This document shows positions 1,689 to 19,677 of a stretch of 64,000 nt of DNA, piece by piece; position 1 is the stretch's first letter; the number at the start of each line of letters is the position of its first letter. The notes under the pieces were generated by a model. It saw nothing but the letters and a program-made list of their open reading frames with translations. It was not told where the DNA came from and did no database searches. The DNA is taken from the NCBI RefSeq assembly GCF_024700885.2, contig NZ_CP117016.1. The stretch is one strand, 5' to 3'. Source of the DNA: Escherichia coli. GTDB lineage: Bacteria > Pseudomonadota > Gammaproteobacteria > Enterobacterales > Enterobacteriaceae. Position numbers and translations under genes: made by a program.

Positions 1689-1710
1689 ACCGCTCCGGCG
1701 GTTTTTTTAT
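1689..1710 (+). terminator. Short hairpin plus T7 tract between terminase and capsid genes (attenuator-like)
   Basis: accgc-tccg-gcggt stem-loop followed by ttttttt; the RBS aggagg and GTG start of the next gene follow. Confidence 0.35.
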
Positions 1711-1725
1711 TTTCAGGAGGCTGAT

Positions 1726-3663
1726 GTGACTCTTAAACGGGCCTGTTCCCTGCTGACGGTGAAATCCTTCAGTGAGGATGAACGAGTGATCACCGGGATT
1801 GCGTCAACGCCTTCTCCGGATCGGGATGGTGACATCCTGGAGCCGGAGGGCGCGGAGTTTGGCAGTGCGATCCCGTTTCTCTGGCAGCATGACCATTCCC
1901 GCCCGGTGGGGCAGTGTACGGTGCGCCGGGTCAGCGAAGGGCTGGAAATCACGGCAACACTGGTGAAGCCCGTACCGGATATGCCGTCGCAACTGGCTGC
2001 CCGGCTGGATGAGGTCTGGGCGGCCATTAAGACCGGGCTGGTCAGGGGGCTGTCCGTGGGCTTCCGTCCCCATGAATACACCTTTCTGGACGGAGGCGGA
2101 CTGCATTTTCTGCGCTGGGAACTGATGGAGGTGTCTGCCGTCACCGTGCCCGCGAATGCGGAATGCACCATCCGGACCATTAAATCTTACGACCGCCCGT
2201 TTTCTGCCGCGTCCGGCAACCGGAAACCGGTGGTGAAAATCGCATCTTCTGCCGGCGCTGCGGCACAGTCAACAACCGTTTTTCATAAGGAAAAGACCAT
2301 AATGAATATTGGCGAACAGATTAAAAGTTTTGAAAACAAGCGTGCAGCGCTGGCAGCCTCCCTTGAGGAGGTCATGACCAAAGCCGCAGAGGAAGGGCGC
2401 ACGCTGGATGTGGAGGAGGAAGAGCATTACGACAACACCGCAGCGGAAATCCGTCAGGTGGATGCGCACCTGAAGCGCCTGCGTGAACTGGAAGCCGGTA
2501 AGGCCGCCACGGCGCAGCCGGTGAAACAGGCCGGTAACGGGAATGTGGCCGCGGTGGCTTCTGCGCCGGTGATCCGTGTGGAGCAGAAACTGGATAAGGG
2601 GATTGGCTTCGCCCGCTTTGCCAAATCGCTGGCTGCGGCTAAAGGCGTCCGATCTGAAGCCCTGGAAGTGGCCCGTCGTCAGTATCCGGATGACAGTCGT
2701 CTGCATCATGTCCTGAAATCGGCAGTGGGCGCGGGGACCACCACGGATCCGCAGTGGGCAGGCAGCCTGTCTGAATATCAGGAATACGCACAGGACTTTA
2801 TTGATTACCTGCGTCCGCAGACCATTATCGGGCGATTTGGTCAGGGCGGGATCCCTGCACTTCGTCAGGTGCCGTTCAATATCCGTGTGCACGCCCAGGT
2901 GTCCGGCGGTGCTGCCGGCTGGGTGGGTGAGGGTAAGGCAAAACCCCTGACGAAGTTTGATTTTGAATCCATCACCTTCAGTCATGCGAAGGTGTCGGCC
3001 ATTGCGGTACTGACGGAAGAATTGATCCGTTTTTCCAGTCCGGCTGCTGATGCACTGGTCCGTAATGCGCTGGCGGAAGCGGTGGTGGCGCGTCTGGATA
3101 CAGACTTTGTGGACCCGAAAAAAGCCGCAGTGGCAGATGTCTCCCCGGCGTCCATCACCCATGATGTGAAGGGCACGGCATCAACCGGTAACCCGGATGC
3201 GGATGCAGAGGCTGCGTTTGGACAGTTTGTGGCAGCAAACCTGCAGCCCACCGGTGCGGTCTGGCTGATGTCCAGCACCAATGCCCTGGCACTGTCCATG
3301 CGTAAAAATGCGCTGGGTCAGAAGGAATACCCGGACATGACCCTGCTGGGTGGCTCCTTCCAGGGGCTGCCGGTGATTGTCTCCCAGTACGTGGGTGACC
3401 AGCTGGTGCTGGTGAATGCCCCGGATATTTATCTGGCGGATGACGGCGGCGTGGCAGTGGATATGTCCCGCGAGGCATCACTGGAAATGCAGTCTGAGCC
3501 GGGCGGCGACAGTACCACGCCGTCCCCGGTGGAGCTGGTTTCCATGTTCCAGACAGGCAGCGTGGCCATCCGTGCGGAGCGCTGGATCAACTGGCGTCGT
3601 CGCCGTACCGCGGCGGTGGCGGTGATCACCGGAGTGAACTACGGCAGTGCGTCCGGCGGCTGA
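1726..3663 (+). CDS. Prohead protease - scaffold - major capsid protein fusion (HK97 family)
   Basis: N-terminal part resembles HK97-type prohead proteases (DRDGDILEP, LWQHD, SVGF, VSAVTVPANAE); after an internal MNIGEQIK and a charged coiled-coil stretch, the C-terminal part resembles HK97-fold capsid proteins. GTG start 6 nt after aggagg. Confidence 0.85.
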   Translation: MTLKRACSLLTVKSFSEDERVITGIASTPSPDRDGDILEPEGAEFGSAIPFLWQHDHSRPVGQCTVRRVSEGLEITATLVKPVPDMPSQLAARLDEVWAAIKTGLVRGLSVGFRPHEYTFLDGGGLHFLRWELMEVSAVTVPANAECTIRTIKSYDRPFSAASGNRKPVVKIASSAGAAAQSTTVFHKEKTIMNIGEQIKSFENKRAALAASLEEVMTKAAEEGRTLDVEEEEHYDNTAAEIRQVDAHLKRLRELEAGKAATAQPVKQAGNGNVAAVASAPVIRVEQKLDKGIGFARFAKSLAAAKGVRSEALEVARRQYPDDSRLHHVLKSAVGAGTTTDPQWAGSLSEYQEYAQDFIDYLRPQTIIGRFGQGGIPALRQVPFNIRVHAQVSGGAAGWVGEGKAKPLTKFDFESITFSHAKVSAIAVLTEELIRFSSPAADALVRNALAEAVVARLDTDFVDPKKAAVADVSPASITHDVKGTASTGNPDADAEAAFGQFVAANLQPTGAVWLMSSTNALALSMRKNALGQKEYPDMTLLGGSFQGLPVIVSQYVGDQLVLVNAPDIYLADDGGVAVDMSREASLEMQSEPGGDSTTPSPVELVSMFQTGSVAIRAERWINWRRRRTAAVAVITGVNYGSASGG

Positions 3664-3707
3664 GTCTGATAAGGAGGACGGGAGGCGTGCGCCTCCCGTA
3701 ACAGGTT

Positions 3708-3929
3708 ATGGCAAAGATCCGATATCTGCAGGGCACGCATGATGCCCGGGCCGGGGATATCCGTGATGTGGCACAGCCGTGTGCGGAGGTGCTGGTTCGC
3801 CTGGGAAAGGCGGAGTACATCACGGTGCGACGTCCGGCAGGTCAGAAAAAGAAACGTGATGCGGAGCATGGCGAATGTGGAACCTTTTACGGCGAACCCG
3901 AAAAAACCAGAAATCAGGACGTGACGTAA
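3708..3929 (+). CDS. Hypothetical small protein (73 aa) between capsid and portal; overlaps the annotated portal start
   Basis: ORF only; follows the cgggaggc-gtgc-gcctcccg hairpin after the capsid gene; no recognisable family; weak RBS. Confidence 0.2.
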   Translation: MAKIRYLQGTHDARAGDIRDVAQPCAEVLVRLGKAEYITVRRPAGQKKKRDAEHGECGTFYGEPEKTRNQDVT

Positions 3930-18891: not shown

Positions 18892-18916
18892 GGCGCCAGA
18901 AATGGCGCCTTTTTTA
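18892..18916 (+). terminator. Rho-independent terminator after J
   Basis: ggcgcc-agaaat-ggcgcc followed by ttttttatt. Confidence 0.6.
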
Positions 18917-18939
18917 TTGCAGAAAAGCGAGAGGTAATT

Positions 18940-19539
18940 ATGCGTAAATTATGTGCTGTTATTTTGTCCGCAGTAGTCTGGCAGGTCGCCGCTGCTACGC
19001 CAGCGAGTGCAGCAGAACATCAGTCCACGCTGAGCGCGGGGTATCTCCATGCCTCGACGAACGTTCCCGGTAGTGATGATCTGAACGGGATTAACGTGAA
19101 ATACCGTTATGAGTTTACGGACACGCTGGGGCTGGTGACGTCATTCAGTTATGCCAATGCCAAAGATGAGCAAAAAACGCATTACAGCGATACCCGCTGG
19201 CATGAAGATTCCGTGCGTAACCGCTGGTTCAGCGTGATGGCGGGGCCGTCTGTGCGCGTGAATGAATGGTTCAGCGCGTATGCGATGGCGGGTGTGGCTT
19301 ACAGCCGTGTGTCGACTTTCTCCGGGGATTATCTCCGCGTAACTGACAACAAGGGGAAAACGCACGATGTGCTGACCGGAAGTGATGACGGTCGCCACAG
19401 CAACACGTCTCTGGCGTGGGGGGCTGGCGTGCAGTTTAACCCGACCGAATCCGTGACCATTGACCTTGCTTATGAAGGTTCCGGTAGTGGCGACTGGCGA
19501 ACGGATGCATTTATTGTTGGTATCGGATACCGTTTCTGA
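18940..19539 (+). CDS. lom: Lom-like outer membrane protein (Ail/Lom family)
   Basis: 199 aa with signal peptide and beta-barrel pattern ending GIGYRF; position after J as in lambda. Confidence 0.88.
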   Translation: MRKLCAVILSAVVWQVAAATPASAAEHQSTLSAGYLHASTNVPGSDDLNGINVKYRYEFTDTLGLVTSFSYANAKDEQKTHYSDTRWHEDSVRNRWFSVMAGPSVRVNEWFSAYAMAGVAYSRVSTFSGDYLRVTDNKGKTHDVLTGSDDGRHSNTSLAWGAGVQFNPTESVTIDLAYEGSGSGDWRTDAFIVGIGYRF

Positions 19540-19643
19540 CAACAGACGCCGATTTATCTTCTGTAAATATTGTTATGATACGCAGGTTCATCCACCTTAT
19601 GGGGTGAACTGCGTTTGAGGAAACGTAAAGTTACACTGTCCTG

Positions 19644-19677
19644 AAGCCCGTGGCGTCACTGCTGCGGGCTTTTTTTA
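19644..19677 (+). terminator. Hairpin plus T tract after lom
   Basis: agcccg...cgggct followed by ttttttt. Confidence 0.4.

Follow-up and report, generated by a model that had tools for sequence, protein, structure and literature searches.

In phage lambda, a hairpin with T6 lies 19 nt before gene E, another hairpin directly follows E, and yet another precedes J; terminator-like elements are also seen on both sides of lom, at 18920–18935 (J/lom) and 19612–19633 (lom/stf). Terminators of the lambda late operon were reportedly mapped distal to J by Luk and Szybalski in 1983. This operon is expressed as a single Q-antiterminated transcript (PMC10695390), and Q-loaded RNA polymerase is built to keep terminator hairpins from forming (PMC9388147). 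In HK446 (NC_019714), "rho-independent terminators", which are predictions of the depositors, are annotated before the protease gene, after the capsid gene, before and after the major tail gene, and before the tape measure gene; elements of this kind, being annotated in related phages, are already known. In HK97-like phages they have the form of a GC hairpin and a T run approximately 20 nt before the next start codon, and an analogous element precedes the protease gene. In SPP1, a Gram-positive, non-lambdoid Bacillus siphophage with no known Q, intergenic sense-strand terminator-like stem-loops split a late virion region in which no internal promoters are recognizable (PMC6316719).

These lambda, HK97-like, and SPP1 arrangements resemble that in the window, i.e., the whole 64,000-nt stretch of Escherichia coli DNA analyzed here, with several differences. 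The hairpin sequences differ from those of HK446, and the elements are not homologous to those of lambda. The head genes are ordered TerL, protease–capsid fusion, portal, and the pre-capsid element follows TerL, not portal as in HK446; unlike in HK446, the major tail gene and G have no hairpin between them. Lambda, in turn, has no element before V or H, since these genes abut or overlap their upstream neighbors.

The operon is the late operon of a lambdoid, HK97-like E. coli prophage, with gene assignments backed by Pfam. Its assignment to the Q-type lambdoid family is suggested by the 95%-identical relative PPompW_699, which carries a "late gene regulator Q" upstream; the window itself begins within TerL, that is, downstream of where Q, pR', qut, and tR' would sit. 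In the PPompW relatives an IS element separates the Q/tRNA region from terS, and lysis genes are unannotated; hence, pR' drive has possibly been lost, and the operon may no longer be driven by this promoter. A scan that detects near-consensus sites found no sigma-70-like promoter on the + strand at 1–20000 (a weak promoter is possible), which fits a single operon. The genes run in the order TerL, protease–capsid, further head and connector genes, tail terminator, major tail–G–T, tape measure, and so on to I, J, lom, and tail fiber, and the sense-strand elements mark six boundaries along this order.

Five elements consisting of a hairpin and a T run had been listed in a sequence-only reading of this DNA; inspection of the sequence, scanning, and folding recover all five, with positions agreeing to within 2 nt. 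Site 1 (1687–1710, +; hairpin 1687–1704) is located between the TerL stop codon (1662) and the GTG (1726) of the protease–scaffold–capsid fusion gene, and ends 21 nt from the latter. It is formed by GAACCGC-TCCG-GCGGTTT followed by TTTTATTT (–8.4 kcal/mol); its stem is also present in Sakai Sp9 (v2 1782980–97), where the loop differs (TGCG). Site 2 (7955–7975, +; hairpin 7955–7969) lies between the stop codon of the tail-terminator gene (7927) and the ATG of the major tail gene (7992), 22 nt from this ATG, and has the form CCCGC-CGCGT-GCGGG followed by T6 (–7.5 kcal/mol). It is invariant among close relatives; in one of them (L011) there is a mosaic junction directly upstream of the hairpin, where the upstream gene is replaced and the hairpin stays with the tail gene. 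Site 3 (9408–9431, +; hairpin 9408/9411–9426/9429) starts 5 nt past the stop codon of T (9402) and ends 21–23 nt from the tape measure ATG (9450), depending on the T pairs counted into the stem; its form is (GAG)AACCGC-TGAG-GCGGTT(TTT) followed by a T run (–7.1 to –10.3 kcal/mol, z = –2.4). In relatives, insertion of one compensating pair gives a variant (ACCTGC/GCAGGT); the hairpin also persists where the upstream gene is a different one. Sites 1–3 belong to class A, defined as a hairpin with a strict T tract approximately 17–29 nt before a start codon that tracks the downstream gene upon insertions. Class B elements are GC hairpins 2–20 nt past the stop codon of the capsid or major tail gene that track the upstream gene and in which the T tract is optional.

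Three elements, at 3678–3699, 7914–7930, and 15266–15295, add to the initial five. The first of these (+ strand) begins 15 nt past the stop codon of the capsid gene and is a class B hairpin with a 9-bp GC stem, ACGGGAGGC-GTGC-GCCTCCCGT, and no T run (–17.8 kcal/mol, z = –3.1); it is a candidate 3' stabilizer. The hairpin 7914–7930 (+; element 7914–7940), AGGTCAC-GGT-GTGACTT followed by TTTCTTTTTT, is weak (–5.8 kcal/mol) and overlaps the stop codon of the tail-terminator gene; of the two hairpins in tandem ahead of the major tail gene, it is the upstream one. It has one compensatory G–C to A–U change in a related locus (L008) and is lost in two others (L020 and L052), hence it is dispensable. 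The palindrome at 15266–15295, not assigned to either strand, forms a perfect 13-bp hairpin in the I–J gap, AAACCCCGGTATC-NNNN-GATACCGGGGTTT (–22.6 kcal/mol, z = –6.4), with T-rich tails both ways, and could serve as a bidirectional terminator separating the late operon from a convergent sRNA gene; a hairpin before J is found also in lambda and in Sakai Sp9 and Sp15. Gene M contains a hairpin at 12887–12911 (+), GGCATGGT-GGTT-ACCGTGCC followed by TTTTTG; it is identical in Sakai Sp9, which is uninformative because the sequence is coding, and its membership in the set of elements is doubtful. For Sakai, a Term-seq dataset is publicly available (GSE143631; PMC7547250).

Site 4 (18891–18915, +; hairpin 18891–18910), located between the J stop codon (18872) and the lom ATG (18940) and ending 29 nt from the latter, has the form GGGCGCCA-GAAA-TGGCGCCT followed by T5 (–15.1 kcal/mol, z = –2.7). 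Site 5 (19643–19679, +; hairpin 19643–19672), between the lom stop codon (19539) and the ATG of the tail-fiber gene (19691), has a 12-bp stem followed by T7 (–20.0 kcal/mol) and ends 18 nt from this ATG. The J/lom hairpin is present in all 80 analyzed lom loci, with compensatory double changes at two stem pairs (G–C to A–U and C–G to U–A); G–U intermediates are seen, and all cells are paired (100%). A terminator-like element between lom and the fiber gene is found in 79 of the 80 loci in two non-homologous versions, that of the window and the lambda-type AGCCCGCCGG-TTCA-GGCGGGCT. The simplest reading of sites 4 and 5 is that they bound the lom moron. Morons are promoter–gene–terminator units inserted into phage operons (Juhala et al., 2000, as cited in PMC4104026 and PMC2629481). 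Similarly, terminator-like elements stand on either side of lom, the downstream one being the hairpin 19643–19672, and extra ORFs of relatives at the T/tape measure and capsid/adaptor gaps end with such elements. However, sites 1–3 border core virion genes, and no near-consensus sigma-70-like site that could serve as the promoter of lom itself was found on the + strand at 1–20000.

Intrinsic terminators are expected to have a GC-rich stem of approximately 5–14 bp, a loop of 3–8 nt, and, immediately 3' of the stem, a U tract (at least 5 of 8 nt). The five sites have stems of 5–12 bp and loops of 4–6 nt (–7.1 to –20 kcal/mol), with T5–T8 directly 3' of the stem on the + (sense) strand; the U tracts of 3678–3699 and 15266–15295 only partly conform. 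A strict scan (compact hairpin, loop of 3–8 nt, at most two unpaired stem bases, dG ≤ –6.5, T tract) yields eight sense-strand matches at 1–22516, compared to 2.65 ± 1.5 in 40 dinucleotide shuffles; as one of the 40 shuffles also reaches eight, the raw count by itself is not decisive. Six of the eight matches, though, fall within 829 intergenic nt, which constitute 3.7% of the operon (binomial P = 6.5e-8). As a positive control, the same scanner finds the trp attenuator of the host, at 35145–35125 (–). A looser consensus scan is not significant alone (21 matches vs. 15.5 ± 4.4). In the folding, proposed earlier as a check, the whole-gap z is modest for site 1 (–1.1) and site 2 (+0.25). Hence, the case relies on placement, orientation, and conservation rather than on folding energy. 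Over 30 loci, the density of sense-strand elements is 2.36 per kb in gaps and 0.20 per kb in coding sequence, whereas the respective values for antisense elements are 0.51 and 0.27 per kb. The elements thus lie in gaps and in the orientation of transcription, and the strict scan, the strand comparison, and the conservation described below uphold their description as terminator-like, sense-oriented, and intergenic. The host part of the window holds none of these hairpins. At the gathering threshold of Rfam 15, none of the elements is matched; the window's only matches, the Trp leader and STnc180, belong to its host part.

The element preceding the major tail gene occurs in 26 of the 27 loci compared, which represent more than 20 genera, including Burkholderia, with identity of the chaperone G of 33–65%. 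It lies 19–23 nt from the ATG in 22 of 25 cases, the other three (7–9 nt) being measured from a homology-derived and therefore uncertain start; shuffled pre-tail gaps yield an element at a rate of 0.8%. The stem core CCGC/GCGG is nearly invariant and cross-species covariation is limited, so that shared descent or a need for this particular sequence could account for some of the conservation; the 20 nt of spacer preceding the hairpin are depleted of G (3%). The element before the tape measure gene is present in 19 of 25 diverse loci, 17–24 nt from the start, and keeps this spacing despite 277–1127 nt of extra genes inserted after T. A post-capsid hairpin (–8 kcal/mol or lower) is seen in all 25 loci, 2–20 nt past the stop codon of the capsid gene in 23 of them and 45–50 nt in two, and remains with the stop codon where an ORF is inserted downstream; it is also seen in Burkholderia FUB47a and Kosakonia L182, both sharing the head type of the window. 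These hairpins often have stable loops of the UUCG or GNRA type, and many lack a T tract. Where class B hairpins do have T runs, these directly follow the hairpin even 39–76 nt from the next start codon, hence the tract goes with the hairpin and not with the ribosome-binding site (RBS). The hairpin ACCGC-TCCG-GCGGT recurs at different junctions across phages. The elements are conserved and under selection, and not due to chance.

The explanation that we favor, to which we assign about an even chance on the sequence evidence, is that the elements are intrinsic terminators at the boundaries of the late operon, which would stop RNA polymerase lacking Q and be read through in the presence of Q. 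Polymerase that had not acquired Q at pR' would halt at the elements, be it following spurious initiation, read-in, or transcription from the lom or sRNA morons; in the lysogen, the strongly translated virion genes would thus stay silent, and moron RNAs would remain short. Once induction has occurred, polymerase carrying Q would pass the elements, because its nozzle prevents formation of terminator hairpins; large coverage steps under Q are therefore not expected. The hairpins would fold later, in the released RNA, where they might impede 3' exonucleases, a role most plausible for class B after the capsid gene, and hold the U-rich RBSs of the capsid and major tail genes free of structure and independent of translation upstream. 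Given their low stability (–7 to –10 kcal/mol), hairpins 1–3 might be poor terminators even for unmodified polymerase. Three features go beyond an insulator role alone: the approximately 20-nt spacing of class A, the G-depleted pre-tail spacer, and the lack of a T tract in many post-capsid hairpins. For Tn916, PMC11658703 describes an insulating terminator that keeps expression from starting prematurely and yields to antitermination encoded by the element itself; however, it is a single terminator, in a conjugative transposon that uses another antitermination system, and the analogy is by function only.

Hairpins of the papBA, malEFG (REP), and puf operons, located just after the gene of the most abundant subunit, act as RNA stabilizers and are proposed to raise its share of mRNA. 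A similar role in RNA stability or processing, which we consider possible but rather unlikely, would have the hairpins, after endonucleolytic cuts, stand in the way of 3'-to-5' exonucleases or, where they form 5'-terminal stem-loops, of RNase E entry; the capsid and major-tail segments of the 22-kb late RNA would then outlast the rest, setting protein ratios, and termination would be incidental. The capsid gene is indeed bracketed by the hairpins at 1687 and 3678, and the V–G–T segment by those at 7955 and 9408. The post-capsid hairpin 3678–3699 has the same layout as the known stabilizers and likewise no T run; in general, the post-capsid hairpins are universal, bound to the stop codon, and often closed by stable loops, and many of them, having no T tract, are not terminators. 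Moreover, as hairpins cannot act at the polymerase under Q (PMC9388147), a role in the lytic phase must be at the RNA level. On the other hand, the window has no REP consensus, and most of its elements have strict T tracts and precede genes. The strict T tract of class A, retained in the pre-tail and pre-tape-measure elements of most loci, is superfluous for an exonuclease barrier; an upstream hairpin protects the upstream, low-copy segment unless cleavage occurs within a few nucleotides 5' of it; and the tape measure, lom, and fiber genes are not high-copy. An RNA-stability role, as put forward initially, would fit the previously unlisted hairpins after the capsid and, in relatives, major tail genes better than the five listed ones. 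U-rich enhancers upstream of the Shine–Dalgarno (SD) sequence are established, and an unlikely alternative is that the class A hairpin and U tract form a translational unit approximately 20 nt before the start, which insulates the RBS from upstream structure and translation and offers S1 a U-rich landing site, so that initiation is high whatever the context, with the likeness to a terminator being a by-product or a second use. Consistent with it are the distances from hairpin end to start codon (18–29 nt at the five sites of the window, and the narrow ranges before the tail and tape measure genes of relatives), the retention of the element with the downstream start after upstream insertion or gene swap, and TTTTTTATT-N-TCAGGAGGC, which the capsid and tail genes have in common. 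In addition, the SDs of these two genes are not above those of connector genes embedded in coding sequence, so that context could make the difference. However, in a compact genome approximately 20 nt is also the least room into which a U tract, an SD, and a spacer fit; the tape measure, lom, and fiber genes, which are weakly expressed and have weak SDs, are preceded by this arrangement too; a U-rich enhancer requires no hairpin; and class B hairpins far from starts have T tracts as well.

The initial proposal of placement directly before high-copy genes with strong RBSs holds for two of the five sites, those before the capsid fusion and major tail genes, both with TCAGGAGGC, but not for the other three: the tape measure, lom, and tail-fiber genes are low-copy or non-virion, with moderate or weak SDs (–6.6, –7.1, and –4.9 kcal/mol, respectively), and several low-copy connector genes without hairpins have SDs equal in strength to those of the capsid and tail genes. 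The related idea of partial terminators setting high capsid and tail output does not stand, since termination upstream of a gene lowers its transcript relative to the upstream genes and therefore gives no explanation for this output. In its lytic form, with each element stopping a fraction of Q-modified polymerases and transcripts declining stepwise from 5' to 3', it is quite improbable. Six to eight elements do lie in series, and their strength rises distally from –7 to –10 kcal/mol (sites 1–3) to –15 to –22 kcal/mol (pre-J, J/lom, and lom/fiber), roughly in parallel with the falling protein demand from capsid to fiber; in SPP1, late clusters with no known internal promoters are delimited by terminator stem-loops (PMC6316719). 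Yet elements are found also upstream of the two most abundant proteins, the wrong direction for a larger share. In lambda, late protein ratios are reportedly set mainly at translation initiation (Sampson and co-workers, in 1988). Terminator hairpins are, moreover, prevented by Q-loaded polymerase (PMC9388147). Very improbable is a lack of present function, the elements being relics at mosaic junctions, i.e., linkers of module exchange or terminators from old moron insertions. The mosaic junction directly upstream of the pre-tail hairpin in L011, the recurrence of ACCGC-TCCG-GCGGT at different junctions in different phages, and the extra genes often inserted in these gaps would agree with it; but the elements persist in 26 of 27, 25 of 25, and 80 of 80 loci and show compensatory changes, whereas the non-coding sequence around them diverges; they are specific to the sense strand, and the low rate in shuffled gaps argues for purifying selection. 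Overall, the interpretation offered by the sequence-only reading is partly supported.

Two further candidate identities were rejected. RNase III sites, as in T7 late mRNAs, have stems of approximately 20 bp or more; the longest stems here are 12–13 bp, and those of sites 1–3 are 5–9 bp. The elements also do not form a REP/BIME-type 3' stabilizer, as the hairpin sequences differ and there is no repeated consensus palindrome; a stem is shared only by sites 1 and 3, with CCGC-N4-GCGGTTTTT occurring twice in the 64 kb.

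The window opens with ~23 kb of late (virion) genes of a lambdoid prophage; many EHEC prophages and Stx phages match this region at 92–98% identity, above all the PPompW prophages. Pfam matches place TerL at positions 1–1662; a fused prohead protease–scaffold–HK97 capsid gene with a GTG start at 1726–3663; portal at 3875–6460; adaptor, head closure, gp10-like, and tail-terminator genes up to 7927; the major tail protein at 7992–8708; chaperones G (start probably at 8723) and T; tape measure at 9450–12692, followed by M, L, K, and I; J at 15399–18872; lom at 18940–19539; and tail fibre at 19691–22516. 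Judged from sequence, the tail module is HK97-like, not lambda-like: the G chaperone matches HK446 and related HK/mEp phages, and lambda is not matched. Prophage Sp9 of E. coli Sakai is annotated with the same 1938-nt capsid fusion gene; full-length relatives of the fusion outside E. coli come only from a Burkholderia phage in the deposited phage records searched, and a genome scan shows the same head type in one Kosakonia prophage. The order of TerL, capsid fusion, a 73-aa ORF, and portal (1726–6460) is reversed relative to HK97. An AGGAGG lies 7 nt before the GTG of the fusion (1713–1728), and an out-of-frame ATG-TGA overlaps this start codon.

The host trp operon follows the prophage region (Trp leader at 35118–35211) and adjoins it, as in the PPompW prophages; within the host part lie the trp attenuator at 35125–35145(-) and the sRNA STnc180 at 49176–49378(+). 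Since the window begins within TerL, Q and pR' of this prophage are outside view. In PPompW_699, a 95%-identical relative (L191, LC567826.1 15388–17445), Q is followed by three tRNA genes, ISEc20, and directly terS, with no lysis genes annotated, so the late operon of this family may be cut off from pR' and the prophage may be defective.

The sequence-only reading listed five hairpins with T runs in the late operon, and all five are found, offset by at most 2 nt, at 1687, 7955, 9408, 18891, and 19643 (sites 1–5). Their hairpin energies are -8.4, -7.5, -7.1 to -10.3, -15.1, and -20.0 kcal/mol, respectively; 5–8 T residues directly follow each stem at its 3' side on the sense strand, and the next start codon is 18–29 nt from the element end. 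Three further elements had been omitted: a strong hairpin without a T run at 3678–3699, beginning 15 nt downstream of the capsid stop codon (-17.8 kcal/mol; z-score of the gap, -3.1); a weak hairpin with a T run at 7914–7930, overlapping the stop codon of the tail-terminator gene and standing in tandem with site 2 ahead of the major tail gene; and a perfect 13-bp palindrome at 15266–15295 in the I–J gap (-22.6 kcal/mol, z = -6.4). Inside gene M, an 8-bp terminator-like hairpin (12887–12911, +; -11.8 kcal/mol) followed by TTTTTG is unchanged in Sakai Sp9, and may be functional or coincidental. The Sp9 counterparts of the window's elements lie at 1782980–97, 1789240–58, 1790690–711, 1794707–30, 1798267–86, and 1799019–48 of NC_002695.2.

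Sites 1 and 3 have a common stem, CCGC-N4-GCGGTTTTT (1690–1706 and 9413–9429), which occurs exactly twice in the 64 kb, with none expected. The site-1 hairpin, ACCGC-TCCG-GCGGT, recurs upstream of the major tail gene of mEp390 and of a Silvania prophage, and in a Klebsiella phage it follows the capsid gene (related loci L082, 6625–6679; L084, 4967–5043; and L185). By its sequence it behaves like a portable cassette, or else these sequences are convergent.

The number of such elements is by itself a weaker signal than their position. A loose built-in scan yields 21 matches against 15.5 +/- 4.4, overall not significant, and whole-gap folding z-scores, weak for sites 1 and 2, were left out of the evidence. 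A strict scanner, for which the trp attenuator served as a positive control and was recovered, yields 8 sense-strand matches within the operon; shuffles give 2.65 +/- 1.5, and 1 of 40 also reached 8. Six of these eight matches fall within 829 intergenic nt, or 3.7% of the operon (P = 6.5e-8), and it is this placement that carries the case for non-chance. In 30 related loci, the density of sense-strand elements is ~12 times higher in gaps (2.36 per kb) than in coding sequence (0.20 per kb), and within the gaps it is 4.6 times that of antisense elements.

Related loci on viral contigs came nearly all from close E. coli relatives. Among close relatives the pre-tail hairpin does not vary, and it stays beside the tail gene even where the upstream gene has been swapped (locus L011). 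The sole close relative without the usual pre-tail hairpin (L057, IMGVR_UViG_2693429642_000014) has unrelated sequence upstream of the major tail gene, with another hairpin, GTCCAT...ATGGAC, and then a T run, ATTATTTTTG. The pre-tape-measure hairpin is likewise kept behind a different upstream gene, and relatives also have a version of it in which one compensating base pair is inserted (ACCTGC/GCAGGT vs ACCGC/GCGGT). The hairpin between J and lom is kept in all 80 lom loci; two of its stem pairs show changes in both partners, with G-U intermediates, and pairing is kept in 100% of cells, compared to 34–64% in slid-partner controls. A terminator-like element between lom and the fibre gene is present in 79 of the 80 loci, in two non-homologous versions.

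More distant relatives were represented by five annotated phages (HK446, mEp390, Cronobacter ENT39118, a Klebsiella phage, and Burkholderia phi1026b) and 24 prophages from 24 species, with G chaperones 33–65% identical to that of the window. Because a single chaperone family led to all of these prophages, they represent a single tail type. Here, a strict hairpin-plus-T element is present between the tail-terminator and major tail genes in 26 of 27 loci, while dinucleotide shuffles of these gaps produce it in 0.8% of trials. An element precedes the tape measure gene in 19 of 25 loci; a hairpin of -8 kcal/mol or lower follows the capsid gene in all 25 (15 with a T tract), and a hairpin follows the major tail gene in 17 of 30. 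Clear compensatory changes are confined to close relatives (sites 3 and 4). Across genera, the pre-tail stem core (CCGC/GCGG) is near-invariant in the MAFFT/RNAalifold alignment, which limits covariation to only three pairs with double changes; hence, the pre-tail argument is built on retention. The spacer between the tail-terminator stop and the pre-tail hairpin (7928–7954 in the window; loci L081–L085 and L165–L188 in relatives), ~20 nt long, is unalignable between genera, and is always C/A-rich with G nearly absent (C 189, A 159, T 101, G 15 in 464 nt); the lack of G might avoid competing structure or mark a Rho/RNase entry site.

Loci carrying inserted extra genes separate the elements into two classes. 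Class A elements, with a strict T tract, end 17–24 nt upstream of the major tail or tape measure start codon, a distance unchanged when 277–1127 nt are inserted upstream. Class B elements are GC hairpins, often with a UUCG-type loop, located 2–20 nt after the capsid or major-tail stop in most loci; their distance to the stop codon is unchanged with an ORF inserted downstream, and the T tract is optional. All five listed sites of the window belong to class A, and the 3678–3699 hairpin to class B.

By sequence, the elements are intrinsic-terminator signals punctuating lambdoid and HK97-like late operons, and the existence of such elements was already known. The GenBank record of HK446 has 'rho-independent terminator' features on both sides of the major tail gene, ahead of the protease and tape measure genes, and behind the capsid gene. 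In lambda, a hairpin with T6 ends 19 nt upstream of E and another hairpin closely follows E; a further one precedes J, and the J–lom and lom–stf junctions have terminator-like elements. Late gene clusters of SPP1 have been described as bounded by terminator stem-loops (PMC6316719). A literature search found no paper in which 3' ends are mapped at sites of this kind for a late operon or phage of this type.

From the anatomy, placement, orientation, and selection of the elements we infer how they would act. The T tract, strictly retained beside the hairpin, is the signature of intrinsic termination, and is retained even where the hairpin is 39–76 nt from the next start codon. An exonuclease barrier would do without the T tract and a U-rich translational enhancer without the hairpin. 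RNase III sites were rejected, the stems being too short, and so were internal promoters paired with the terminators, as a promoter scan of the plus strand at 1–20 kb finds no site; an Rfam search of the phage part of the window returns no families. Q of lambda forms a nozzle on the RNA exit channel, precluding terminator hairpins (PMC9388147); therefore, in a Q-driven operon, the sites should stop only polymerases that did not begin at pR'. The best reading is a candidate role as insulators in the lysogen: the terminators would keep the strongly translated virion genes silent, would bound moron transcripts (lom and a convergent sRNA), and would be read through after induction. If so, they contribute to silencing a 22-kb, strongly translated virion block in E. 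coli lysogens, EHEC included, and keep the lom and convergent sRNA transcripts short.

Since the hairpins can still fold in free read-through RNA, RNA-level roles are possible as well. The role proposed from the sequence, partial terminators or RNA-stability elements setting expression ratios, is partly supported: partial termination upstream cannot raise the transcript share of a gene, and the idea of RNA stability fits class B hairpins best. The suggestion that the elements precede high-copy genes with strong ribosome-binding sites holds for two of the five sites (AGGAGG), and fails for tape measure, lom, and fibre, with their weaker Shine-Dalgarno sequences; the Shine-Dalgarno sequences of hairpin-less connector genes match those of the capsid and tail genes in strength. 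The insulator reading leaves the ~20-nt class A spacing and the G-depleted pre-tail spacer unexplained, and a second, translational or stabilising role is possible; genome compaction alone could also produce the spacing. We consider it rather unlikely that class A is a conserved dual-use cassette, acting as a terminator in the lysogen and, after Q read-through, as an mRNA 5' stabiliser and translational enhancer or insulator. Such a cassette would comprise the G-depleted spacer, the hairpin with its near-invariant CCGC/GCGG core, and the U tract, at a fixed ~20 nt upstream of a module's first start codon; it would make expression of the capsid, major tail, and tape measure genes independent of translation upstream, and would be portable between junctions and between phages. 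Activity in read-through mRNA would help to explain how one transcript gives hundreds of capsid and tail subunits and few connectors, and the ~20-nt spacing, the split into start-tied and stop-tied elements, and the positional conservation in 26 of 27 loci offer a concrete, easily mutated target for this protein-ratio question.

The I–J gap (15057–15398) contains, on the minus strand, a near-consensus promoter, TTCACA-16-TATAAT, at 15193–15166, and ~95–100 nt past it a hairpin, TCCGCG-ATCAC-TGCGGG(A), with T7 at 15086–15062(-). The stretch 15062–15193(-) resembles a small RNA gene that converges on the late operon. No Rfam family covers it, and 13 identical phage records annotate no feature there; it shares 77% identity with the J–I gap of Sakai prophage Sp15, where the Hfq-binding sRNA EcOnc22 (homologues EcOnc23 and EcOnc24) is listed, seen as ~85 nt on a Northern blot and destabilised without Hfq (Tree et al., 2014). 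The EcOnc22 peak falls within the segment homologous to the window, given an assembly-version shift of ~+125 nt estimated from HnrS. HnrS itself (EcOnc10–12), a multicopy prophage sRNA (bioRxiv 10.1101/2025.11.27.690950), was rejected as a candidate for the I–J or post-lom gap, as it has no match in the window; in Sakai Sp9 it is located between Rz and the terminase genes. Table S2 of Tree et al. lists no Hfq-binding sites at the Sp9 equivalents of the pre-tail, pre-tape-measure, pre-J, and post-lom gaps.

The gap between lom and the fibre gene is 151 nt in the window against 64 nt in the lambda-type version, a difference of ~90 nt, and the long version is found in ~50 of the 80 lom loci. Its extra part (19545–19640, +) contains an extended -10-like TGTTATGAT and two further hairpins at 19586–19609 and 19610–19627 (folding z = -3.3), and could be another small transcript with its 3' end at the 19643 terminator.
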